A stretch of 32,000 nt of DNA from Microcystis aeruginosa NIES-843 (GTDB lineage Bacteria; Cyanobacteriota; Cyanobacteriia; Cyanobacteriales; Microcystaceae): the NCBI RefSeq assembly GCF_000010625.1, contig NC_010296.1:5640001-5672000 (forward strand). The letters run 5' to 3'. The notes below the pieces were generated by a model, which was given only the letters and a program-made list of their open reading frames with translations, was not told the origin of the DNA and did not search any database. The position numbers and the translations under genes are program-made. Of this stretch, positions 9,111 to 31,567 are shown in pieces (within the stretch, counting starts at the first letter, position 1; every line of letters starts with the position of its first letter).

Positions 9111-10979
9111 ATGGATCCATCTTTCACCCTTACCCTGCAAATTGTCATCACTGTGGTGGCGGGGATTACAGCCCAAGTCATTGCCGAATACCTGAAAGTT
9201 CCCAGTATTGTCTTCCTGCTCATTTTTGGGATTGCTTTAGGGTCCGATGGTTGGGAAATTTTACACCCCCAAAGTCTGGGAATTGGTTTAGAAGTCCTTG
9301 TTGCTCTCTCTGTGGCGATTATCCTATTTGAAGGCGGTTTAAGCTTAAGCGGACGGGAATTAGGGCGAGTTTCTGGCAGTTTACGCAATCTTGTCACCCT
9401 CGGTACTTCCATCACTCTCATCGGTGGCGGTATGGCAGCCCACTGGTTGGGGGAATTTCCCTGGCCGATCGCTTTTCTTTACGCTTCTTTAGTGGTGGTA
9501 ACTGGTCCGACGGTGATCGGGCCTTTGCTGAAGCAAGTAGCCGTAGATCGACGGGTGGCGACGCTTTTGGAAGGGGAAGGGGTATTAATCGACCCTGTGG
9601 GCGCAATTTTAGCCGTAGTGGTGCTAAATACGATTATTGATAGTCATGCCCGCCCCATGGAAATTATCACTGGTTTAACCCTACGTTTAGGCATCGGGGC
9701 GGCGATCGGCATTGCTGGAGGCGGATTGTTAAGTTTTATTATAAAAACTTGCAATTTTCTGACTTTTGAGTTAAAGAATCTCGTGGTTTTAGCGGGAGTC
9801 TGGGGGTTATTTGGTTTATCACAATTTAGTCGCAGTGAATCGGGGTTAATGGCGGTGGTAATGGCGGGAATTGTCCTAAAAGCGGCGGCAGTTCCCGATG
9901 AGCGGTTATTAAGGCGTTTTAAGGGTCAATTAACCACTCTTTGCGTGTCGGTACTGTTTATTTTACTAGCGGCGGATCTTTCGATCGCCAGTGTCATCGC
10001 TTTGGGTTGGGGCAGCGTCCTGACCGTGTTAGTCTTGATGCTGGTGGTACGTCCCCTGAGTGTGGCTCTGTGTACCCTAAAAAGTGACCTAAATTGGCGA
10101 CATAAGTTATTTATCGCTTGGGTTGCCCCTAGAGGAATCGTCTCTGCCTCCGTAGCTTCTTTATTTGCCATTTTACTCACCCGTGCCGGTATTAATGGCG
10201 GTGAAGCGATCAAAGCTTTAGTCTTTTTAACAATTTTAATGACCGTTTTTATTCAGGGATTAACGGCGCGTTGGGTGGCAAAAGGGCTAAAAATCACTTC
10301 TTCTGCGGCAACAGGGGCAGTAATCGTCGGTTGTAATCCCCTAGGTCGCTTAATCGGTTGTTTATTCCAAGAACAAGGGGAAAACGTGGTTTTAATCGAT
10401 ACGGATGCCAGGGCCTGTGAACAAGCAGAAGAAGACGGTTTGACGGTGCTGCAGAGTAGCGCACTTGATACAAAAATACTGCAAGAAGCCGGCATCGAAT
10501 CCATGGGGACTTTTCTGGTTTTGACTAATAATAGCGAGGTTAATCTGGTTTTAGCCCAAAGAGCCGGCGAGGAGTTTCATCCTCCCCGGTTGTTGGCTGC
10601 CTTTGCGGGAACCCCCAACCCGGATAAAAATAAGGTTAATCAGGTTTTTCTCCCTAGTTTTTCGGTCAAGGAATGGAATCAGTATTTAGACGATAATCAG
10701 ATTAAATTGGGTAAAACTATCTTTAAAGGCAATGATTTGAGCGAACAACAGACCAGATTAACTAAATTAATTGAAAATGGCGAACTGCTGCCCCTACTAT
10801 TGCGTCGCGATAATTCCCTACAGGTAGTAACAGAAAGGGAAGAATGGCGCACCGGAGACGAATTAATCTATATTCTGCGCGATTTACGCCCACAACTGCT
10901 TAAACGTCTTTCCGGCACTGTCAGAACTCGTTTATCTTTAGAAATCTTACCCGAAGTGGAAATTGTCACCAGTAGATAA
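9111..10979 (+). CDS. cation:proton antiporter (CPA1/NhaP type) with C-terminal TrkA-N/RCK-like domain
   Basis: 622 aa. About 400 aa form a polytopic membrane domain (FEGGLSL, ATGPTVIGPLL, PRGIVSASVA). A soluble Rossmann-like segment follows (AVIVGCNPLGRLIG...VVLIDTD). Confidence 0.85.
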   Translation: MDPSFTLTLQIVITVVAGITAQVIAEYLKVPSIVFLLIFGIALGSDGWEILHPQSLGIGLEVLVALSVAIILFEGGLSLSGRELGRVSGSLRNLVTLGTSITLIGGGMAAHWLGEFPWPIAFLYASLVVVTGPTVIGPLLKQVAVDRRVATLLEGEGVLIDPVGAILAVVVLNTIIDSHARPMEIITGLTLRLGIGAAIGIAGGGLLSFIIKTCNFLTFELKNLVVLAGVWGLFGLSQFSRSESGLMAVVMAGIVLKAAAVPDERLLRRFKGQLTTLCVSVLFILLAADLSIASVIALGWGSVLTVLVLMLVVRPLSVALCTLKSDLNWRHKLFIAWVAPRGIVSASVASLFAILLTRAGINGGEAIKALVFLTILMTVFIQGLTARWVAKGLKITSSAATGAVIVGCNPLGRLIGCLFQEQGENVVLIDTDARACEQAEEDGLTVLQSSALDTKILQEAGIESMGTFLVLTNNSEVNLVLAQRAGEEFHPPRLLAAFAGTPNPDKNKVNQVFLPSFSVKEWNQYLDDNQIKLGKTIFKGNDLSEQQTRLTKLIENGELLPLLLRRDNSLQVVTEREEWRTGDELIYILRDLRPQLLKRLSGTVRTRLSLEILPEVEIVTSR

Positions 10980-11053
10980 GTAATAGGACAAAATTAACTT
11001 CTTGGTGAGGATAGGCACTCTGGCAACTTAACTTAGCTAAAAAAAACGGTACA

Positions 11054-11084
11054 CTGATAACTGATAATTGATAACTGATAACTG
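11054..11084. repeat. CTGATAA heptamer tandem repeat (4.5 units) ending 3 nt before the start codon at 11088
   Basis: Direct reading gives CTGATAA CTGATAA TTGATAA CTGATAA CTG. The same heptamer array occurs at 21764-21798. Confidence 0.85.
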
Positions 11085-11087
11085 CTT

Positions 11088-11342
11088 ATGCCTCCCCGTT
11101 GGCCCCGTCAACCCGACCGCAAAAACGATCCCGCTTTCCGACGTTTAGATGATCGCATGAATTTCGCCGTTCATGTAGCGGGTTTTTTAGCGATTAATTC
11201 AGGGTTGTGGTTTTTTCATATCATTAAATTTTCCGATTGGACTTGGTTAAATCTGTTCACGGGAATTTGGGCTATTCTATTGGTGGGACATTTGATTTAT
11301 ATAGCGGCGATCGCTAACTACTCGGTAACATCCCATGGCTAA
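11088..11342 (+). CDS. small membrane protein, 2TM-domain-like
   Basis: 84 aa with two predicted hydrophobic helices after a basic N-terminus (FRRLDDRMNFAVHVAGFLAINSGLWFF...). The stop overlaps the next start (ATGGCTAA). Confidence 0.55.
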   Translation: MPPRWPRQPDRKNDPAFRRLDDRMNFAVHVAGFLAINSGLWFFHIIKFSDWTWLNLFTGIWAILLVGHLIYIAAIANYSVTSHG

Positions 11343-11637
11343 TACAACTCAGGACATCGAAAATCTGGCGGCCCAAATCGGCGACAATATCTACATTGAC
11401 GTGGCTAAATGGCATCTCTATCTCCGGGAAGCACATTTACACAGCGTCGTTGCCGAAAAAGTCTTCCCTTTGCTCGAAAACGACAGCTTAAGCGAGAATG
11501 CAGTCATGTCTATCCTGCGGGAGATAAAAGTCACCCTCGGAGGTGGTCATCTGCAAGTTTCCCTAGCGGATTTATTACCCAGCAAATGTCAGATAGATTT
11601 AATCGATTTGCTAGAAGAATACCAAAAAAGTCGCTAA
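11335..11637 (+). CDS. conserved cyanobacterial hypothetical protein (possibly DUF3181-like)
   Basis: 100-aa ORF, translationally coupled by an 8-nt overlap with 11088..11342. The family assignment is from memory only. Confidence 0.5.
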   Translation: MANTTQDIENLAAQIGDNIYIDVAKWHLYLREAHLHSVVAEKVFPLLENDSLSENAVMSILREIKVTLGGGHLQVSLADLLPSKCQIDLIDLLEEYQKSR

Positions 11638-11796
11638 AATTACCCAATAGTATGCCCGATAACTCGCAGACTAGGACTAACAGGCTAAAGTAGTTAGGGT
11701 TGGCTGAATAAATCTAAAAACATTGTCCGATAAGTACTGGTCATTGGAGTGATCCGGGGGAAAATTCAGGGACTTTTCCCCTGAAAATGGCTAAAA

Positions 11797-11837
11797 CCCT
11801 ACACCCCACACCCCACTTCCCCACTTCCCCACTTCCC
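11797..11837. repeat. heptamer/octamer repeats (ACACCCC x2, ACTTCCCC x3); 3' exon flank of the intron
   Basis: Direct reading gives CCCTACACCCCACACCCCACTTCCCCACTTCCCCACTTCCC. Confidence 0.85.
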
Positions 11838-11913
11838 GTTACAGTAGAGCAGGAAGTCGCCTTCCCACCCCCTGCTTCAAAACCGGACTTACGACTTTCG
11901 CCGTATCCGGCTC
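11838..11913 (-). ncRNA. group II catalytic intron domains V-VI (Rfam Intron_gpII-type region)
   Basis: GAGCCGGAUACGGC-GAAA-GUCGU-AA-GUCCGGUUU is 34 nt with the AGC triad, a GAAA loop and a 2-nt bulge, and every stem position pairs (Watson-Crick or G-U). The D6 hairpin GGGAAG-GCGA-CUUCCU follows. Confidence 0.85.
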
Positions 11914-12622
11914 CTGAGTAACTAGGCTACTGTCATTAGTAGAATAATAATGGGAATTATTATTTCCTTGTCTATTCAACCCTCTTGGCTGTATCCCCAC
12001 CAGACAAGATTGTTGGTTTTAGGGCGTATATGACCGTTGATTGTTGCTTAGACTTCCTAGTTACCCGTCCTTTGTCAGCATATCTTTGATATTACTCAAA
12101 GCCTTGGCTTTTAAGGACATCCTCTCCCTCTATTGACTTGCGGATGGTTTCCTACTGCCCCGAACGGGCAGAGTCAATCAGGGTTACTTCGTTCCCTATA
12201 ACCATTGGTTGAACCCTTAGGATGATACTGTCCACAACAGAGTAACGGGAATGCCTTACTGATAGTGGTATGAGCTATCAGCCCCAACTCTGTTAACTTT
12301 TGTTTCGAGCCTGTCAGCCTTTTGGCTCGTGGGTGTTGACGATGGTTAATTCGTATCTTCGCCCCAGGGCTATCCATAGGTTCTGGCTCAACGGGTTTCT
12401 GATTTAGGCTATCAGATACCGCTTTTTTTTCCTCGCTCACTACCTCAGATGTACCAAGTCTAAAGCAGCAGGAAATGCCGTCACTCTAGGCATCTAGAGG
12501 ACAGGACTAAGGTTATTACTAACCCGCACCTGTAGGGTTATAAAGTTATCAAGGTACTACATTTACCAAGCGGCTAATCCTCTAAACGTCTTACTGTCTA
12601 GTTTCTAGCCAACGAATCGCAC
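11838..12622 (-). mobile_element. group II intron, ORF-less (~785 nt)
   Basis: The minus strand starts GTGCGATTCG at 12622. Canonical domain V lies at 11913..11880. Domain VI carries a GCGA tetraloop and an unpaired A 7 nt before the terminal ...TAAC (11838). Domain IV is reduced to a short AT hairpin (11941-11968). No RT/maturase ORF is present. Confidence 0.85.
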
Positions 12623-12648
12623 CACACCCCACACCCTACCACCACCGA
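12623..12648. repeat. heptamer repeats (CACACCC/ACACCCT/ACCACC); 5' exon flank of the intron
   Basis: Direct reading gives CCACACCCCACACCCTACCACCACCG. Confidence 0.8.
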
Positions 12649-12698
12649 AAAACTTTTTCAGCATACCCTAGTTAGAAATAGTCCCCCAGAAGCAAACC

Positions 12699-13784
12699 AT
12701 GGAAATAGGTGTCCCCAAAGAGATTAAAGATCAGGAGTTTCGCGTCGGTTTGAGTCCTAGTAGTGTGCGTGTACTCAATGATCGCGGTCACAGGGTGTTT
12801 GTGGAAACGGCCGCCGGATTGGGTGCTGGATTCAGCGATGAAGATTACCAAAAATCCGGGGCCAAAATTGTGGAAAAAGCGGCCCAAGTTTGGGATAAAC
12901 CGCTAATTGTCAAGGTAAAAGAGCCGCTGAAGGCAGAATACGGCTTTTTAAATAAGGAAGCTCTCCTATTCACCTATTTACACCTAGCGGCCGAGCGCTA
13001 TTTAACGGAAGCATTAATCGAGTCGGGAACAACTGCGATCGCTTATGAAACGGTCGAGCTTGCCGATGGTCGTTTGCCTCTCTTGACTCCCATGAGTGTT
13101 ATTGCCGGTCGTCTTTCGGTACAATTTGGGGCCCGCTATCTGGAAAAACAACAGGGAGGTAGGGGAGTTTTACTGGGGGGTTTCCCCGGGGTGAGTCCTG
13201 GACAAGTGGTTATCCTTGGCGGTGGTGTGGTGGGTACGGAAGCGGCCAGAATTGCCATCGGTATGGGAGCAAAAGTAACTATTTTAGATATTAACGTCGA
13301 GCGCTTGGCCTATTTAGAGACTTTATTCGGTTCCAGGGTAGAATTGCTTTATAGTAGCCCGGCACAATTAGAAAATGTGGTTCCTAAGGCCGATTTATTG
13401 ATTGGGGCAGTGCTAGTCTTAGGAAAACGAGCGCCAACTCTAGTTTCTCGCTCTTTAGTCGCCAAAATGAACCCTGGTTCCGTAATTGTCGATGTGGCAG
13501 TGGACCAAGGGGGCTGCGTGGAAACTCTGCGGGCCACTTCCCACAGTCAACCGACTTACTTGGAGTCGGGAGTAGTACATTATGGAGTGCCTAATATGCC
13601 TGGAGCAGTACCCTGGACGGCAACCCAAGCTTTAAATAATAGTACCCTAGCCTACGTTATTAAATTAGCCGACCATGGGGTAAAAGCCTTGGATCAAGAT
13701 GTTTCCCTCGCTAAGGGGTTAAATGTCGCCAATCATCGGTTAATTCATCCAGCAGTGCGCGAAGTTTTTCCCGATTTGATTTGA
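12699..13784 (+). CDS. ald: alanine dehydrogenase
   Basis: 361 aa starting MEIGVPKEIKDQEFRVGLSPSSV, with the NAD fold VVILGGGVVGTEAARIA and the C-terminal blocks VIVDVAVDQGG and HYGVPNMPGAVP. Confidence 0.95.
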   Translation: MEIGVPKEIKDQEFRVGLSPSSVRVLNDRGHRVFVETAAGLGAGFSDEDYQKSGAKIVEKAAQVWDKPLIVKVKEPLKAEYGFLNKEALLFTYLHLAAERYLTEALIESGTTAIAYETVELADGRLPLLTPMSVIAGRLSVQFGARYLEKQQGGRGVLLGGFPGVSPGQVVILGGGVVGTEAARIAIGMGAKVTILDINVERLAYLETLFGSRVELLYSSPAQLENVVPKADLLIGAVLVLGKRAPTLVSRSLVAKMNPGSVIVDVAVDQGGCVETLRATSHSQPTYLESGVVHYGVPNMPGAVPWTATQALNNSTLAYVIKLADHGVKALDQDVSLAKGLNVANHRLIHPAVREVFPDLI

Positions 13785-13945: not shown

Positions 13946-14962
13946 ATGGTCAAATTTATCGATTTATTTGCCGGTATTGGAGGCTTTAGAATAGCTTTTG
14001 AAAATCTGGGTTGTCAGTGTGTTTTTTCATCGGAGTGGAATAAATTTTCTCGAAAAACCTACGAAGCTAATTTTAACGATAGTCCCGAAGGGGATATTAC
14101 TTTAATTCCCGCTTTAACAATACCAGATCATGATATATTGACGGCTGGGTTTCCCTGTCAGCCTTTTAGCATAGCTGGAGTAACTAAACACAATGCGTTA
14201 GGTACTCGCCATGGATTTGATCATCCCACTCAAGGAACACTTTTTTTCGAGGTTGTCAGAATTATTCGAGAAAAAAGACCGAAAGCATTCATTTTAGAAA
14301 ATGTCAAAAATTTACAGAGTCATGACAAGGGTAAAACATTTGAAGTGATTAAAAATACCCTATCAGAGGATTTAAATTATCATATTTGTTATCAGGTCAT
14401 AGATGCTCGTTCTCTTGTTCCCCAGAACAGAAAAAGAATTTTTATTGTTGGCTTTGAGAAACCTAGCCGATTTATGTTTCCAGAAATACCAGATATTCAT
14501 CCTAAAATTAAAGATATTCTTGAAGGGGAAGTTGATAGTAAATATACTTTAACAGATCATCTCTGGGATTACTTACAGAAGTATGCTGATAAACATAAAG
14601 AAAAAGGGAATGGTTTTGGTTATGGATTAGTTAATTTAGAGGGGATTGCCAGAACTTTGAGTGCTAGATATTATAAAGATGGTTCCGAAATTTTGATCCC
14701 TCAACAGGGAAAAAATCCCCGTCGTCTAACACCAAGAGAATGTGCAAGATTGATGGGATTTCCTGAAAAATTCATTATTCCTGTATCTGATAATCAAGCT
14801 TATAAACAGTTTGGTAATGCGGTTGTACCTCCTGTAGTAGAGGCAATAGGAAGGGAGATATTGCTAAGTCTTAATAATCCTATTTTAGATCAGAAAAATT
14901 TGCTTGATTCATCTCGCAAAAATCCAATTATCAAACAATTAGAACTTGCCCTAGTTTTTTAG
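13946..14962 (+). CDS. dcm: DNA (cytosine-5)-methyltransferase, type II R-M system
   Basis: 338 aa with the ordered m5C motifs [38 protein letters not shown] and X QFGNAV. The overall layout resembles HpaII-type MTases (from memory). Confidence 0.95.
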
Positions 14963-14974
14963 TCCTAAAGATTT

Positions 14975-15817
14975 ATGATTGATATCTATAGCTTTAATGC
15001 TCAGGAAAATGAATTAATCGAGACAATTAAGACTGCTTATTATATGCAACCGGTGATCTCGAAAATAGACGCTATTTTAGCAATTCAAGATGTGGAGATA
15101 TATCAAAATGCTTTCAATTATCTCTATGAATTTATTCAAGGCTCAAAAGATGAAGTAGAAAAAATTATTAAACAAAGAAAGCTTCAGGGATTGATTAAAG
15201 ATGAAAAACAAACTGCCAAAGCTGTGGTAGGAAACATATTTCCCTATGCGGTTATCTATATTTTTCTCAAAAATAAGGAGATCAAGAATATTGATCAACA
15301 TATTTATATAACTAATAAAAAATCTGCTGTTCGAGGATTTGAAAATATATCCACTATTAAATTGGGTGATGGAGAACAACAAAAACTAGATTGTGATTTG
15401 ATCATTTATTCTTACCATACTTCTGCAAAGATAAGTGATGGTAATAATCAAGAAATACCCTATCCTAAATGTATAATTTTATCCTTAAAAACTTCTTTGC
15501 GAGAAAGAGCATCGCAAACCTATAAATGGAAACTTTTGTTAGAAATAGCTAATGATCATGGCTCTAAAATTAAGGAAAAATACGGCATTAACTATAATGT
15601 TCCAGAAATTCCTCTTATCTGTTTTGTTACAGTTAATTTTTACAACGAAATTAACAATCCTCAACAACGAGGAATGTTAAAATTTTTTGATAAAGCATTT
15701 TTGGCCAAAAAATTAGATAATGAAAAAGAGACGGATTTAAACAGACAAAAATCCCAAGATTTTATTAGTCCATTATCAGAATTAGTAGATTTTGTTAGAG
15801 ACTTTTTTAAGCCATAA
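14975..15817 (+). CDS. type II restriction endonuclease, CC:GG-recognising PD..(S)xK superfamily (Cfr10I/NgoMIV/Ecl18kI/BsaWI-like)
   Basis: 280 aa, starting 12 nt after the MTase gene on the same strand and sharing its AT-rich composition. Candidate catalytic and recognition residues are LDCDL (D139/D141), S170-L-K172-T-S-L-R176-E-R178, and E190. Confidence 0.65.
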   Translation: MIDIYSFNAQENELIETIKTAYYMQPVISKIDAILAIQDVEIYQNAFNYLYEFIQGSKDEVEKIIKQRKLQGLIKDEKQTAKAVVGNIFPYAVIYIFLKNKEIKNIDQHIYITNKKSAVRGFENISTIKLGDGEQQKLDCDLIIYSYHTSAKISDGNNQEIPYPKCIILSLKTSLRERASQTYKWKLLLEIANDHGSKIKEKYGINYNVPEIPLICFVTVNFYNEINNPQQRGMLKFFDKAFLAKKLDNEKETDLNRQKSQDFISPLSELVDFVRDFFKP

Positions 15818-16323: not shown

Positions 16324-19300
16324 TTAGACAAAGAAACTATTGACTGCAATAGTGCCGAGCGCCGGGAAAGTACCCGTTAACCCAGTCAGATTAATCACCA
16401 AATCATTAGCACTTTGGAAACCCGCCGTACCGTCGTTGATAATTAAGTAAGTAGAAGAACTATTGTCCCGCACTAAAGCAGCGCTGTTAATTCCGAGAGC
16501 TTGATTTCCGGCTGTTGCGCCATTAGCATCGGTAAAGACGTTAGTAACAATGGTGTTAATATTGGTCGTGGTGCTATCTGTTGCCCGGGTAAAAGCGAGA
16601 GGGGCATTAATGGCCGCACCAGCTTGACTAAGCAGGTCAATCTTATCAGTACCAATAGCAAAATCCGTAACTCGGTCTAGGGCTGCTGCGGTGGACTGAC
16701 CAAATCGGAAGATGAAGATGTCTGTCCCCGTCCCACCGGTTAAAGTATCGATTCCAGCAGCACCATTGAGGGTATCGTTACCAGCGCCACCGATTAGGGT
16801 ATCGGTTCCAGCAGCACCATTGAGGCTATTATTGCCACTATTCCCTGTAATCTGGTTATTTAAGCCATTACCCGTGCCATTAAGATTACCAGTACCAGTG
16901 AGAAGGAGATTTTCCACGTTGTTGGGAAGGGTATAGGAAATGGCAGCTTGCACGGTATCGGTTCCCTGGTTGAAAGCTTCAATCACCAAATCCCCGGCAT
17001 CATTTACCGTATAAGTATCGTTTCCGGCTAACCCAGTCATGGCATCTGCTCCAGAGGTTCCCGCAAGGGTGTCTGGACCAGAAGTACCGATAAAGTCATC
17101 ATTATTGATAGTTCCGGTGGCAGTAGCGGTGGTGATAGTAGCACCGTTGGTGGCATTGGAGAGGGTGACGGTAAAGTTTTCGTTCAGTTCTACCGTTGTA
17201 TCTCCCTGAACGTCAACAGTAATCACTTTTGAGGTTTCCCCGGCGGCAAAACTCAAGGTTCCTGACGGTAACACGGACCCGACAAAATCCGTGGCATTGG
17301 CAGGATTGGTTCCGCTGCCGGTAACTGCCCAGTTAACGTTATTGGTTCCCGTGGTATTAACCGCACGAGTGACGGTGAAGGTAAAGGCTTTACTGCCACT
17401 GTTGCCCTCGGTTTGATTGGCACTGGTGGCGGCAATAGCGAGGGTGGGAACTGCGGGACTACTCACGGCCCACAATTCCCGACCGTTCACGCCGTCATCG
17501 GCAGTGAAGTACAGGGTGCTGCCCACTACTCTCAGGTTTTGGGGGTTGGAGCCAGAGGAACCAGGGCGGATGTCCCCCACCAGAATCGTACCGGCCGCCG
17601 TGCCGTCGCTTTTCCATAACTCCCGACCGTTCACGCCGTCATCGGCAGTGAAGAACAGGGTATTGCCCACTGCCGTTAGATTTTGGGGGTAGTTGCCAGA
17701 GAAACCGGAACCGGGGTTGATATTCTTGACCAGAACCGTACCGGCCTCCGTGCCGTCGCTTTTCCATAATTCCCGACCGTTCACATTGTCACCGGCAGTG
17801 AAGAACAGGGTGTTGCCCACTGCCGTCAGATTGCGGGGGTTGGAGCTACTAAAGGAACCGGGGCGGATATCTTTGACCAGAACTGTACCGGCCGCCGTGC
17901 CGTCGCTTTTCCACAATTCCTCACCGTTAACGTTGTCATTAGCACTGAAAAAGAGGGTATTACCCACCGCCGTTAGATAGCGGGGGGGGACGCCATAGGA
18001 ACCGGGGTTGATATCTTTGACCAGAACCGTACCGGCCGCCGTGCCGTCGCTTTTCCATAATTCCAGACCGTTCACGCCGTCATTGGCATTGAAAAAGAGG
18101 GTATTGCCCACTGCCGTCAGATAGCGGGGGTCGGAGCTAGAGGAACCGGGGCGGATATTCTTGACCAGAACCGTACCGGCCGCCGTGCCGTCGCTCTTCC
18201 ATAATTCTCGACCGCTAACGCCTCTGGCACTGAAAAAGAGGGTATTGCCCACCGCCGTTAGATTGCTGGGTTCGGGGCCGATGTTCTTGACCAAAACCGT
18301 ACCGGCCGCCGTGCCGTCGCTTTTCCACAACTCCTCTGTACGGCCGATATCGACAGTGAAGAACAGGGTATTGCCCAGTGCCGTCAGATTGTAGAAGTAG
18401 GAGCTAGAGTCACCGGGGTTGATATCTTTGACCAGAACCGTACCGGCCGCCGTGCCGTCGCTTTTCCACAATTCAATACCGTTCACGCTGTCATAGGCCT
18501 GGAAGAACAGGGTACTGCCCACCACCGTCAGATTGCTCGGGTAGGAGCCATAGTCACCCGGGCTGATGTCGGCGACCCGAACTGTACCGGCCGCTGTGCC
18601 GTCGCTCCTCCACAATTCCTCACCGTTAACGCTGTCATAGGCAGTGAAGAACAGGGTATTGCCCCGGGCCGTCAGATTGCTGGGGTAGGGACCAAAGGAA
18701 CCGGGGTAGATATCTTTAACTAAAAAAGGAACGGAGTCCTCGTCAACAATAGTCACGGTTGCCGTAGATGGAGTGCCGAGAGTAGCTCCGTTGGTGGGAT
18801 TGGAGAGGGTGACAGTAAAGTTTTCGTTCGGTTCTACTGTTGTATCTCCCTGGACATTAACAGTAATCACCTTACTGCTTTCTCCCGGGGCAAAACTTAC
18901 TACCCCACTGGGTAACACTCCTCCGACAAAATCGGCAGCGTTAGCGGGAAAAGTGCCGGTGCCGGTAACTGCCCAGTTGACGTTATTGCTTCCGGTGGTG
19001 TTATCCGCACGAGTGACGGTGAAGGTAAAGGCCTTGCTGCCACTGTTGCCCTCGGTTTGACTGCTGCTGGTGGCGGCAATGGTGAGGATGGGGATTGCTA
19101 CATCATCATTTTCGATGGTTCCCGTGGCAGTAGCGGTGGTAATGTTAGCGCCGTTGGTGGGATTGGAGAGGATGACGGTAAAGTTTTCGTTCGGTTCAAA
19201 TGTGGTATCTCCCAGAACGTTAACGGTAATCACTTTACTGGTTTCTCCCGGGGCAAAACTCACGGTTCCTGACGGTAAGACTCCTCCGACAAAATCCGTG

Positions 19301-20763
19301 GCATTGGCGGCATTGCTGCCGCTGCTGATAACTGCCCAGTCAACGTTATTGCTTCCCGTGGTGATAACCGAACGAGTGACGGTGAAAGTGAAAGCTTTAC
19401 TGCCACTGTTGCCCTCGGTTTGGTTGGCATTGGTGGCGGCAATGGCGAGGGTGGGAATTGCGGGCGTACTCACGGCCCACAACTCCCAACCGTTAACGCC
19501 GTTATCGGCGCGGAAGAACAGGGTGTTGCCCACTGCCGTTAGATTACGGGGGTTGGAGCCATTGGAACCGGGGCGGATGTCCCCCACCAGAATCGTGCCG
19601 GCCGCCGTGCCGTCGCTTTTCCATAATTCCTCACCGTTCACGCCGTTATCGGCAGTGAAGAACAGGGTACTGCCCACTGCCGTCATCTGGGTGGAGAAGT
19701 CAAGGGAGCCACCGGGACCGGGGCTTATATCTTTGACCAGAATTGTACCAGCTGCCGTGCCGTCGCTTTTCCATAATTCCTCACCGTTAACGCCGTCATC
19801 GGCAGTGAAAAAGAGGGTACTGCCCACTGCCGTTAGATTGCGGGGGGAGCGACTAGAGGAACTGGGGGCGATATCTTTGACCAGAACCGTACCGGCCGCC
19901 GTGCCGTCGCTCTTCCACAATTCCTCACCGTTCGCGCCGTTATCGGCAGTGAAAAAGAGGGTATTGCCCACTGCCGTTAGATTGCGGGGGTGGGAGCCAC
20001 TAAAGGAACCGGGGCGGATATCCTTGACCAGAACCGTACCGGCCGCCGTGCCGTCGCTTTTCCACAATTCAGTACCGTTCACGCCGTCAAAGGCCTGGAA
20101 GTACAGGGTATTGCCCAGCGCCGTCAGATAGCGGGGGTGGGAGCCATAGGAACCGGGGCGGACGTCTCTGACCAAAACCGTACCGGCCGCCGTGCCGTCG
20201 CTTTTCCACAATTCCCGACCGTTCACGCCGTCATTGGCAGTGAAGAACAGGGTACTGCCCACTGCTGTTAGATTGCTGGGGTAGGGTTCCAAGTAACTGT
20301 AACCGGGAAAAATATCTTTGACCAAAACCGTACCGGCCGCCGTGCCGTCGCTTTTCCATAATTCATCACCGTTCACGCCGTCATCGACAGTGAAGAACAG
20401 GGTACTGCCCACTGCCGTTAGATAGCCGGGGGGGGAGTAACTGTAACCGGGAAAAATATCTTTGACCAAAACCGTACCGGCCGCCGTGCCGTCGCTTTTC
20501 CACAATTCCGGACCGTTCACGTTGTCACCGGCAGTGAAGTACAGGGTACTGCCCACTGCCGTTAGATAGCCGGGGTAGGAGCCACTAAAGGGGCGGATAT
20601 CCTTGACCAGAACCGTACCGGCCGCCGTGCCGTCGCTTTTCCACAACTCCCGACCGTTCACGCCGTTATCGGCCCCGAAGAACAGGGTGTTGCCCACCGC
20701 CGTTAGTTCGAGGGGCAAGGAGCCATAGGGGCTTATATCCTTAACTAAAAAAGGGATTGACAT
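16324..20763 (-). CDS. large secreted repeat protein: 2 x (8 ELWxSDGT repeats + terminal ELWAVS) with 3 Calx-beta domains, RTX Ca-binding nonapeptides and a cyanobacterial C-terminal tail domain
   Basis: 1479 aa with no signal peptide. It has 16 ELW(K/R)SDGT(A/E)AGT units of ~41-44 aa and three Calx-beta-like modules (NQTEGNSGSKAFTFTVTR...PGE(T/S)SKVITV.V.GDT..E.NE.FTV.LSN). GGAGNDTLNGAAGIDTLTGGTGTD repeats are followed by DRVTDFAIGTDKIDL. Confidence 0.9.
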   Translation of the reverse strand: MSIPFLVKDISPYGSLPLELTAVGNTLFFGADNGVNGRELWKSDGTAAGTVLVKDIRPFSGSYPGYLTAVGSTLYFTAGDNVNGPELWKSDGTAAGTVLVKDIFPGYSYSPPGYLTAVGSTLFFTVDDGVNGDELWKSDGTAAGTVLVKDIFPGYSYLEPYPSNLTAVGSTLFFTANDGVNGRELWKSDGTAAGTVLVRDVRPGSYGSHPRYLTALGNTLYFQAFDGVNGTELWKSDGTAAGTVLVKDIRPGSFSGSHPRNLTAVGNTLFFTADNGANGEELWKSDGTAAGTVLVKDIAPSSSSRSPRNLTAVGSTLFFTADDGVNGEELWKSDGTAAGTILVKDISPGPGGSLDFSTQMTAVGSTLFFTADNGVNGEELWKSDGTAAGTILVGDIRPGSNGSNPRNLTAVGNTLFFRADNGVNGWELWAVSTPAIPTLAIAATNANQTEGNSGSKAFTFTVTRSVITTGSNNVDWAVISSGSNAANATDFVGGVLPSGTVSFAPGETSKVITVNVLGDTTFEPNENFTVILSNPTNGANITTATATGTIENDDVAIPILTIAATSSSQTEGNSGSKAFTFTVTRADNTTGSNNVNWAVTGTGTFPANAADFVGGVLPSGVVSFAPGESSKVITVNVQGDTTVEPNENFTVTLSNPTNGATLGTPSTATVTIVDEDSVPFLVKDIYPGSFGPYPSNLTARGNTLFFTAYDSVNGEELWRSDGTAAGTVRVADISPGDYGSYPSNLTVVGSTLFFQAYDSVNGIELWKSDGTAAGTVLVKDINPGDSSSYFYNLTALGNTLFFTVDIGRTEELWKSDGTAAGTVLVKNIGPEPSNLTAVGNTLFFSARGVSGRELWKSDGTAAGTVLVKNIRPGSSSSDPRYLTAVGNTLFFNANDGVNGLELWKSDGTAAGTVLVKDINPGSYGVPPRYLTAVGNTLFFSANDNVNGEELWKSDGTAAGTVLVKDIRPGSFSSSNPRNLTAVGNTLFFTAGDNVNGRELWKSDGTEAGTVLVKNINPGSGFSGNYPQNLTAVGNTLFFTADDGVNGRELWKSDGTAAGTILVGDIRPGSSGSNPQNLRVVGSTLYFTADDGVNGRELWAVSSPAVPTLAIAATSANQTEGNSGSKAFTFTVTRAVNTTGTNNVNWAVTGSGTNPANATDFVGSVLPSGTLSFAAGETSKVITVDVQGDTTVELNENFTVTLSNATNGATITTATATGTINNDDFIGTSGPDTLAGTSGADAMTGLAGNDTYTVNDAGDLVIEAFNQGTDTVQAAISYTLPNNVENLLLTGTGNLNGTGNGLNNQITGNSGNNSLNGAAGTDTLIGGAGNDTLNGAAGIDTLTGGTGTDIFIFRFGQSTAAALDRVTDFAIGTDKIDLLSQAGAAINAPLAFTRATDSTTTNINTIVTNVFTDANGATAGNQALGINSAALVRDNSSSTYLIINDGTAGFQSANDLVINLTGLTGTFPALGTIAVNSFFV

Positions 20764-30404: not shown

Positions 30405-30560
30405 GGGAAGTGGGGTGTGGGGTGTGGGGTGTAGGGTGTGGGGTGTAGGGTGTGGGGTGTAGGGTGTAGGGTGTAGGGTGTGGGGTGTGGGGAGAATAAA
30501 TAAAAAATAATCTCCTGACTCCTGAATCCTGAATCCTGAATCCTGAATCCTGTCTCCTAA
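30405..30560. repeat. composite repeat module: 12 x (G/A)GGGTGT heptamers, 19-nt AT spacer, 7 x (C/A)TCCTGA heptamers
   Basis: Heptamers were counted directly (30405-30492 and 30512-30560). The module is the inverted counterpart of 31350-31567. Confidence 0.9.
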
Positions 30561-31349: not shown

Positions 31350-31567
31350 TCTCAGGAGACAGGATTCAGGAGATAGGAGACAGGAGATTATTTCTATTTA
31401 TTCTCCCCATCCCCCCACTTCCCTACTTCCCACTTCCCTACACCCCACACCCCACTACCCCACACCCCACACCCCACTACCCCACACCCCACACCCCACT
31501 ACCCCACTACCCCACTACCCTACACCCCACACCCCACTACCCTACACCCCACACCCCACTTTCCTAT
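31350..31567. repeat. composite repeat module, inverted relative to 30405-30560 (TCAGGAG-type heptamers, AT spacer, ACTTCCC / ACACCCC / ACTACCCC units)
   Basis: Direct reading. The spacer CAGGAGATTATTTCTATTTATTCTCCCC is the near-exact reverse complement of GGGGAGAATAAATAAAAAATAATCTCCTG at 30489-30517. Confidence 0.9.

Follow-up and report, generated by a model that had tools for sequence, protein, structure and literature searches.

A probable ORF-less group IIB intron from Microcystis aeruginosa and its multi-copy family in heptamer microsatellites

Class C (IIC) and attC-associated group II introns home to repeated structural motifs, their targets—terminators and attC—being recognised largely as stem-loops. 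Closer to the element described below are cyanobacterial introns that lack an open reading frame (ORF). The ORF-less, multi-copy TeI3 introns of Thermosynechococcus elongatus (Mohr, Ghanem and Lambowitz 2010, PMC2882425), which belong to the chloroplast-like IIB lineage, have good EBS/IBS matches, reside mostly in intergenic regions or within mobile elements, and owe their mobility to TeI4 maturases encoded elsewhere, whose specificity is relaxed. TeI3 keeps N- and C-terminal ORF remnants, has close ORF-containing parents in the same genome, targets an IS element or an intron ORF, and was shown experimentally to be mobile. The ORF-less introns of Trichodesmium erythraeum interrupt protein-coding genes, splice in vivo and are likewise thought to rely on maturases supplied in trans from elsewhere in the genome (PMC4649490). 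In Microcystis aeruginosa NIES-843, seven group II reverse transcriptases (RTs) have been reported, six of which are near-identical and carry an HNH-type domain (PMC8934634); the same genome was described by Kaneko et al. to contain eight MITE families with a total of 517 copies (PMC2779907).

Here, we analysed a 32,000-nt stretch of the NIES-843 genome (NC_010296.1, positions 5,640,001 to 5,672,000), referred to as the window, to which all coordinates refer. Its segment 11838-12622 on the minus strand is very likely a group IIB intron from the chloroplast-like cyanobacterial lineage, intact in structure, ORF-less and non-autonomous, and belongs to a Microcystis family with many copies:

11838..12622, minus strand: predicted complete ORF-less group IIB intron of 785 nt, 5' GUGCG ... 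UAAC 3' (copy comparison, RF00029 and covariation)

The element resembles TeI3 in its lineage, its multiple copies, its lack of an ORF, its good EBS/IBS matches, its location and its presumed dependence on a maturase from elsewhere. Unlike TeI3, however, it contains no ORF remnant, its nearest ORF-containing introns are only 53-58% identical, it targets a heptamer microsatellite instead of an IS element or intron ORF, and it is known from sequence, whereas TeI3 mobility has been demonstrated. In contrast to the Trichodesmium introns, it is intergenic, lies in a MITE and is antisense to its neighbours. Its architecture is ordinary for a well-known class; noteworthy are the microsatellite target, the nesting within a MITE, with all the intermediate alleles surviving in present-day strains, and the absence of a cognate maturase lineage.

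Both intron ends were set by comparing copies instead of by motif alone. Every copy starts with GTGCGATTCG and ends with CTACTGTAAC, and the flanks diverge beyond these points. The ends conform to the group II consensus (5' GUGYG, 3' AY), with GUGCG at nt 1-5 and UAAC at the 3' terminus. A preliminary description of this DNA, made from the sequence alone, had read GUGCG at 12622-12618 of the minus strand, where it indeed lies, and had placed it in a ~1-kb gap between a gene for a 100-aa protein (DUF3181) and ald, which we measured at 1,061 nt.

The Rfam model RF00029, covering domains V and VI, matched 11838-11915 on the minus strand with 55.0 bits (gathering score 40; E 2.3e-8 for the whole window). 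This was the sole gathering-level RNA family match in the 32-kb window, and a degenerate domain V pattern occurred once in the window but in none of 100 shuffles. The two domains map as follows:

11880..11913, minus strand: domain V (nt 710-743), with AGC triad, 2-nt AA bulge and GAAA loop; stems covary in relatives
11841..11875, minus strand: domain VI (nt 748-782), with GCGA tetraloop (RF00029 alignment and sequence reading)

Domain V reads GAGCCGGAUACGGC-GAAA-GUCGU-AA-GUCCGGUUU, and every stem position is paired. Bulged A778 (window position 11845), with 7 nt 3' of it up to the intron end at 11838, is the candidate branch point in domain VI. The covariance model thereby upholds what had been read by eye, namely a 34-nt domain V with AGC triad, GAAA tetraloop, 2-nt bulge and fully paired stem, followed by a GCGA-capped domain VI whose unpaired A lies 7 nt before the terminal UAAC.

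The body of the intron was less amenable to existing models. None of the Rfam D1-D4 models reached its gathering score, the best being RF01999 with a partial match inside domain I (12409-12476; 26.7 bits as compared to a gathering score of 36, at permissive E-values), and we therefore resorted to a purpose-built comparative alignment. The comparison set consisted of cyanobacterial introns retrieved by a distant-mode plasmid search, which share with the Microcystis element the 5' 90 nt, nt 387-440 and domain V. All six introns used encode or partly retain a ~570-610-aa RVT_N/RVT_1/GIIM/HNH maturase, ~600 nt downstream of their GTGCGAYYCGTT start. Plasmid introns of Fremyella (L023), Oscillatoria (L035), Nostoc (L036), Planktothrix (L037) and Calothrix (L038) possess a homologous ribozyme (domains I-III and V-VI), with an almost identical 5' 22 nt, but encode such a maturase in domain IV and reside at different target sequences. 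A 1,129-nt Nostoc plasmid intron (L025), considered as a second ORF-less relative, turned out to be decayed, with most of domain I missing and maturase fragments kept, and was left out of the fold analysis.

Domains I-III of the Microcystis element aligned with the six relatives over their whole length, at a mean column identity of 59%. The RNAalifold consensus comprised 114 pairs, 79 of which showed changes on both sides, that is, compensatory ones. Consensus cells were paired in 93.7% of cases versus 74.1% after column shuffling (0/500 shuffles attained the observed values), and sliding the pair partners by 1-3 columns lowered the paired cells to 36-44%. Of the 114 consensus pairs, 103 are formed in the Microcystis RNA; at 30 of these, both of its bases differ from the commonest pair of the relatives. 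In a held-out test, the structure was built without the Microcystis sequence, from the six relatives; of its 130 pairs, 104 are formed by the Microcystis RNA, as opposed to 46±5 (maximum 61) in shuffles and 41-62 with slid partners. Domains IV(3')-V-VI likewise align and covary with the relatives. The following parts of the fold were assigned:

12188..12622, minus strand: domain I (nt 1-435), closing stem nt 7-12/430-435 (RNAalifold consensus with six ORF-containing relatives, helices 1-19)
12125..12183, minus strand: domain II (nt 440-498; consensus helix 20, projected structure)
12067..12118, minus strand: domain III (nt 505-556; consensus helices 21-23, 10/16 pairs compensatory)
11920..11972, minus strand: domain IV without ORF (nt 651-703, 53 nt), an AU hairpin plus a small conserved hairpin (MFE fold)
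12216..12221, minus strand: CCUAAG, which with UAUGG (12374-12378) makes up a candidate 11-nt GAAA-tetraloop receptor (internal loop between consensus helices 11 and 12)

All six group II domains are present in the element. The preliminary description had named the fold of domains I-III as a check on its reading, and the full-length alignment with maturase-encoding cyanobacterial introns, with its compensatory changes, speaks for that reading. Within domain I, UAUGG/CCUAAG constitutes a perfect 11-nt receptor, placed like the receptor-like motifs of the relatives and altered in one subfamily (L018); tentatively, it may be the zeta receptor that docks the domain V loop. As for the lineage, the nearest solved structure to the relatives' maturase is the T. 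elongatus T.el4h maturase (6ME0_C; E 1.8e-108), which places these introns with the cyanobacterial chloroplast-like IIB introns.

Where an intron-encoded RT would normally sit, the element harbours little. The AU hairpin noted there in the preliminary description is real; in the MFE fold it spans 9 bp (nt 659-667/672-680, window 11943-11964) with a UCCC loop, and is accompanied by a second small hairpin (nt 681-685/692-696) that is conserved and covarying in relatives. The same description had pointed to an 88-aa ORF (12174-12440) without RT motifs as the only ORF. The lack of RT motifs was confirmed, but a second ORF of 53 aa exists at 11839-12000; neither of the two had a Pfam match. Its expectation that ORF callers would leave the region blank proved true in some annotations, whereas in others a spurious ‘hypothetical protein’ of 60-95 aa is called across it. 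The spurious 88-aa ORF served as a handle for finding full-length copies elsewhere.

These copies define a family. Among GTDB representative genomes, the exact 32-nt domain V turned up in a single Microcystis aeruginosa metagenome-assembled genome (MAG), in which nine contigs carry it at an end, implying a copy number of at least nine in that MAG. Where short-read contigs encode the identical Ald protein, they invariably stop within the element, 78-143 nt upstream of ald. Together, these breaks and the nine contig ends reveal the behaviour of a dispersed repeat in assembly; short-read Microcystis assemblies are interrupted exactly at the element. Full copies were recovered at unrelated loci (L017, a tandem pair, as well as L018, L019, L020 and L026), with further copies on several MAG and metagenome contigs. 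Intron-only identity among copies amounts to ~97-99.7%, and the copies of the L017 tandem pair are 99.6-100% identical. In the tandem pair of M. viridis NIES-102, 21 nt lie between the copies; an IS4-type element interrupts one of them, and the uninterrupted one is 99.6% identical to the window copy. Two subfamilies can be distinguished, differing at nt 385-387 and 403-407.

We then asked what the element pairs with, and located the candidate exon-binding and target sequences:

12331..12336, minus strand: EBS2, ACACCC (nt 287-292), in an unpaired stretch that is variable among relatives
12267..12272, minus strand: EBS1, CAUACC (nt 351-356), in the loop of hairpin nt 341-347/357-363
12623..12636, minus strand: 5' exon target, with IBS2 at 12631-12636, a 2-nt spacer and IBS1 at 12623-12628, within a (GGGTGTR)n tract
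11796..11837, minus strand: 3' exon, with G at +1 (11837, candidate IBS3), followed by a (GGGAAGTG)3 (GGGGTGT)2 tract

EBS2 shows full Watson-Crick complementarity to GGGUGU, which occupies exon positions -14 to -9, and EBS1 pairs with GGUGUG at -6 to -1. Both thus complement the 5' flank from structurally expected positions, a point on which the preliminary description had let its case depend. A joint EBS1 and EBS2 match was attained by 5e-4 of random 16-mers drawn from the repeat-rich window. The loop homologous to that of EBS1 pairs with the end of the 5' exon in L023, L024 and the maturase-encoding intron of Microcystis discussed below, although their exons all differ (GAUAGA/UCUAUC in the Microcystis maturase intron, CCGCAAU/GUUGUGG and UUCUG/CAGAA in the other two). 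The sequence GGGTGT-R-GGGTGTG was present in 6/6 independent Microcystis 5' flanks, the sole variable 5' exon position being -8, in the unpaired spacer between IBS2 and IBS1. Distinct 3' flanks carried G at +1 in 21/21 cases, GG in 20/21 and GGG in 17/21. EBS3 was not found in the coordination loop; the fixed +1 G fits a fixed IBS3.

When the 5' and 3' flanks are joined, an unbroken (GGGTGTR)n heptamer tract results; the target of the intron is thus a heptamer microsatellite, matched by EBS1 and EBS2. The ‘intergenic repeat tract’ of the preliminary description accordingly holds as regards repeats, but its precise nature is that of a heptamer/octamer microsatellite inside a MITE. In using a recurrent, harmless intergenic landing motif, the family is reminiscent of IIC and attC introns; it differs from them in structural class and in that recognition involves EBS1/EBS2 pairing to a tandem repeat. 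The literature searched contained no account of this intron family or of microsatellite targeting by group II introns, while curated intron databases may list the family.

Suitable tracts are not scarce. The window itself contains two that are vacant:

30410..30492, plus strand: unoccupied (GTGGGGT)12 tract with five perfect target sites (tandem-repeat listing)
31436..31559, minus strand: unoccupied heptamer tract, G-rich on this strand, with perfect target sites (tandem-repeat listing)

In 331 kb of Microcystis DNA, a sample biased to intron-bearing loci, we counted 91 unoccupied 16-nt target matches in 37 tracts versus 13 occupied junctions. The 37 unoccupied tracts point to low activity.

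The tract that houses the window copy is itself part of a mobile element:

11695..12670, minus strand: host MITE with inverted ends TAGGGTATGCTGAA ... TTCAGCCAACCCTA, carrying the heptamer tract (~190 nt without the intron)

CTAACTA is duplicated at both MITE ends (11691-11697 and 12669-12675), and a MITE paralog exists at L002 (3277-3500). As the DUF3181 protein occurs in hundreds of Microcystis assemblies, the DUF3181-ald spacer could be compared among strains, and three states emerged. In state 0, the spacer is a bare 83 nt (L039, L040, L046, L047). In state 1, it holds a ~150-240-nt MITE without the intron, whose heptamer/octamer tract varies in length (L041, L042, L044, L045, L048). State 2, that of the window, consists of the same MITE plus the 785-nt intron in the tract. 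The three-level nesting of spacer, MITE and intron, with all states in extant strains, offers a clean natural example.

The joined exons of the window read GGGGTGTG|GGGAAGTG at the junction, and the 28 nt formed by joining 14 nt from either side of the intron are found exactly in the intron-less orthologous alleles L041 and L042. This implies a base-precise insertion with no target-site duplication, as expected for reverse splicing. Presence or absence of the intron at this locus is polymorphic among strains with an identical DUF3181 protein. The strains without it indicate that this copy arrived recently; alternatively, the intron-less alleles could reflect loss by recombination between the flanking direct repeats.

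Its residence in a MITE raises the question of whether the intron has merely been carried along, that is, inserted once into a MITE and then spread by a transposase-moved composite as opposed to retrohoming. About half of the copies share the right arm of the MITE and several share the left arm, as such a composite would. We nevertheless regard this account as highly improbable: other copies sit in heptamer tracts of unrelated context, either in a (TCCTGAA)n-associated repeat (L017, L020, L032) or in other, including unique, flanks (L010, L026, L028, L029, L030); between 0 and 6 repeat units separate the intron from the MITE arm, depending on the copy; intron-less versions of the orthologous MITE occur; and the flanks follow the EBS/IBS rules.

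An intact, ORF-less intron family calls for a protein from elsewhere, and we searched for its source. Domain IV contains no RT/maturase ORF and, by tblastn with three maturases, no remnant of one. A tblastn alignment of L023 maturase residues 571-598 with intron nt 665-748 (E 0.002) was rejected as an ORF remnant: the L023 ORF spans domain IV-3'/domain V, so that the match reflects RNA homology. The 32-kb window and the intron-bearing loci examined contained no maturase gene. Of the outcomes the preliminary description had hoped for in related genomes, other copies and orthologous empty sites were found, but a close ORF-containing parent was not. Matches to the domain V 32-mer in GTDB representative genomes were confined to one Microcystis MAG and ORF-less where visible; a domain IV/V 28-mer returned nine matches in JGI metagenomes, all of them ORF-less; the intron 5' 22-mer had no match in IMG/VR; and no close parent was found among the PLSDB plasmids, a set that contains no Microcystis record. 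Altogether, 18 copies were seen across the domain IV/V junction, all ORF-less where visible.

The host species nonetheless encodes a maturase of this broad type. A search with the Fremyella maturase returned no Microcystis protein among the best 120, whereas a Gloeothece maturase query retrieved the 586-aa Microcystis maturases P0165-P0167 and P0172 (P0165 being WP_052734211.1). Their intron (loci L050-L052) is 2,365 nt long, matches RF00029 with 46 bits as well as RF04357, and interrupts the N-terminus of an IS605-type tnpB in frame (KAFKYRIY|RQPTSEQ). It resembles the ORF-less element in species, broad class, 5' GUGCGAYUCGUU, the presence of EBS1 in the homologous loop and its location inside a mobile element. 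It differs in possessing an RVT_N/RVT_1/GIIM/HNH ORF and in its target, UCUAUC at the N-terminus of the IS605-type tnpB. Blastn detected no similarity between the two, and over domains I-III they are 55% identical, no closer than the Nostocales introns (53-58%). The ORF-less family hence forms an orphan lineage and did not arise recently from the resident intron by deletion. Nor does it follow the pattern of TeI3, as there are no remnants and the resident maturase intron is 55% identical. Having no close ORF-containing parent, the family lends itself well to testing the reach of a ‘driver’ maturase across intron lineages; mobilisation in trans by such a maturase would accord with precedent.

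How might copies have come about? By analogy with known introns, the excised intron RNA would have reverse-spliced into the G-rich DNA strand, guided by EBS2 and EBS1 (and EBS3), and an RT would then have copied the inserted RNA into DNA (retrohoming). As the intron encodes no protein, the RT/maturase would have to come in trans, and the sole candidate seen in the species is the 586-aa RT-X-HNH protein of the different intron in IS605 tnpB. With a heptamer tract that recurs throughout the genome, a single EBS specificity matched to the microsatellite could open up many harmless intergenic landing sites—dozens of neutral ones per genome.

Whether this process is ongoing is another matter. The element may be an inactive fossil, a true group II intron whose family no longer splices or moves and whose copies date from an earlier burst, the cognate maturase intron behind it having since been lost. 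This is a real possibility, albeit one short of an even chance. It would agree with the lack of a cognate parent in the representative genome, metagenome and plasmid searches, with the distant lineage of the resident maturase intron, with the many perfect target tracts left unoccupied, with the copy disrupted by an IS element and with the antisense orientation of the window copy relative to its neighbours. Set against this are the 97-99.7% identity of full-length copies at unrelated loci in different strains, the preservation of the fold through 30 Microcystis-specific double changes, the presence/absence polymorphism at the present locus despite an identical DUF3181 protein, and the 99.6-100% identity within the tandem pair.

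A further idea dispenses with the maturase: the RNA itself would integrate into, or cut, single-stranded G-rich repeat DNA, with a host or foreign RT needed only for cDNA synthesis, or it would have some other ribozyme function. The lack of a cognate maturase would be in line with this, and protein-free reverse splicing of a IIB intron into single-stranded DNA has been documented in vitro for P.li.LSUI2 (PMC11754743); in addition, the G-rich repetitive target strand may be single-stranded or structured during replication. We deem it highly improbable, since the sequence is indistinguishable from that of an ordinary maturase-dependent IIB intron and completing retrohoming would still require an RT.

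Returning to the intact, ORF-less IIB intron family, its boldest interpretation is that an orphan without a cognate maturase anywhere in the species is still actively proliferating by homing into a G-rich heptamer microsatellite, either by means of a maturase whose own intron RNA is only ~55% identical or partly through protein-free reverse splicing into repeats that, at replication forks, would be single-stranded or prone to form G-quadruplexes. We hold this to be rather doubtful. If true, and if a heterologous maturase drives the family, its specificity would be unusually relaxed; microsatellites would represent a previously unrecognised safe-haven niche for retroelements; and nature would have supplied, in this RNA, a compact ribozyme that can be retargeted through a simple 6+6+1 code.

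Activity from this locus would further depend on transcription of its own strand. The intron lies on the minus strand and both DUF3181 and ald on the plus strand, so it cannot be spliced from their transcripts and would require minus-strand transcription of its own; a scan of 11500-12900 for promoter and terminator consensus sequences yielded no more sites than in shuffles. In state 0, with 83 nt between them, DUF3181 and ald may be co-transcribed. The insertion places ~1 kb of DNA encoding structured antisense RNA upstream of ald, and may thereby alter ald expression in carrier strains.

The (GGGTGTR)n heptamer tract that hosts the ORF-less intron between the DUF3181 gene and ald lies inside a MITE-like element, in which the number of heptamer units ranges from 3 to >15 depending on the strain. 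A CTAACTA duplication is present at both sides of this element, which is probably a member of a MaeMITE family (PMC2779907). Its position is listed here together with those of several other features described in this section.

Features of the window and of the compared loci
Window 11695-12670 (span including the intron): MITE-like element (inverted ends TAGGGTATGCTGAA / TTCAGCCAACCCTA; length ~190 nt without the intron)
L002 3277-3500: paralog of the MITE-like element
Window 12236-12238 (intron nt 385-387) and 12216-12220 (intron nt 403-407): subfamily-defining positions
Window 30410-30560 and 31350-31560, also flanks in L017, L020 and L032: (GGGGTGT)n / (TCCTGAA)n repeat context
L041 spacer, L029 3' flank and L043 spacer: C7/G7 palindromic insert (CCCCCCCAACCCCCCCGACATCGGGGGGGCAGG type)
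Nt 2456-4820 in L050, L051 and L052: Microcystis maturase-encoding group II intron
Window 17470-18717 and 19477-20729: 144-nt tandem repeat arrays

Comparison of the intron copies revealed two subfamilies, set by two linked differences at intron nt 385-387 and 403-407. Copies of the window type possess a perfect candidate 11-nt tetraloop receptor and a mismatch in helix 14, while in the L018 type helix 14 matches the consensus and the candidate receptor is changed. M. viridis NIES-102 (AP019314.1, L017 9730-12838) harbors two ORF-less introns in tandem, separated by three heptamers, with the upstream copy split by an IS4-type transposase gene (DDE_Tnp_1, 10311-11432). A decayed relative maps to plasmid pn1 of Nostoc sp. 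UHCC 0926 (L025 3501-4629); it retains the 5' 96 nt intact, domains V/VI and fragments of a maturase pseudogene, with domain I mostly deleted. This locus exemplifies a degenerate copy in the lineage, whereas the Microcystis element is intact.

The maturase-encoding group II intron of Microcystis specifies a 586-aa RVT_N/RVT_1/GIIM/HNH protein and is inserted in frame at the N-terminus of an IS605-type tnpB (Cas12f-like TNB), at an identical site across the three genomes. This tnpB-borne intron is probably the counterpart of the six near-identical RTs of NIES-843 (PMC8934634).

Heptamer tracts also recur in a second repeat context, in which a (GGGGTGT)n tract is followed by GAGAATAAATA..AATAATC and then (TCCTGAA)n. 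Both window tracts of this kind (30410-30560 and 31350-31560) contain perfect intron target sites without an intron. Another recurrent insert within or adjoining heptamer tracts is a small palindrome of the C7/G7 type (CCCCCCCAACCCCCCCGACATCGGGGGGGCAGG or a variant of it), which looks like a further miniature mobile or hairpin element.

Downstream of ald, window 13946-15817 is a variable restriction-modification island adjoining a XisI gene: it carries a gene pair encoding a PF00145 DNA methylase together with a restriction enzyme of the BsaWI type, in place of which the other strains compared (L040, L041, L047 and L048) have a 259-aa HNH_2 gene. In each of the two long tandem arrays listed above, a 144-nt unit recurs ~8.6 times with 76-80% matches; both arrays presumably fall within a large repetitive protein gene.
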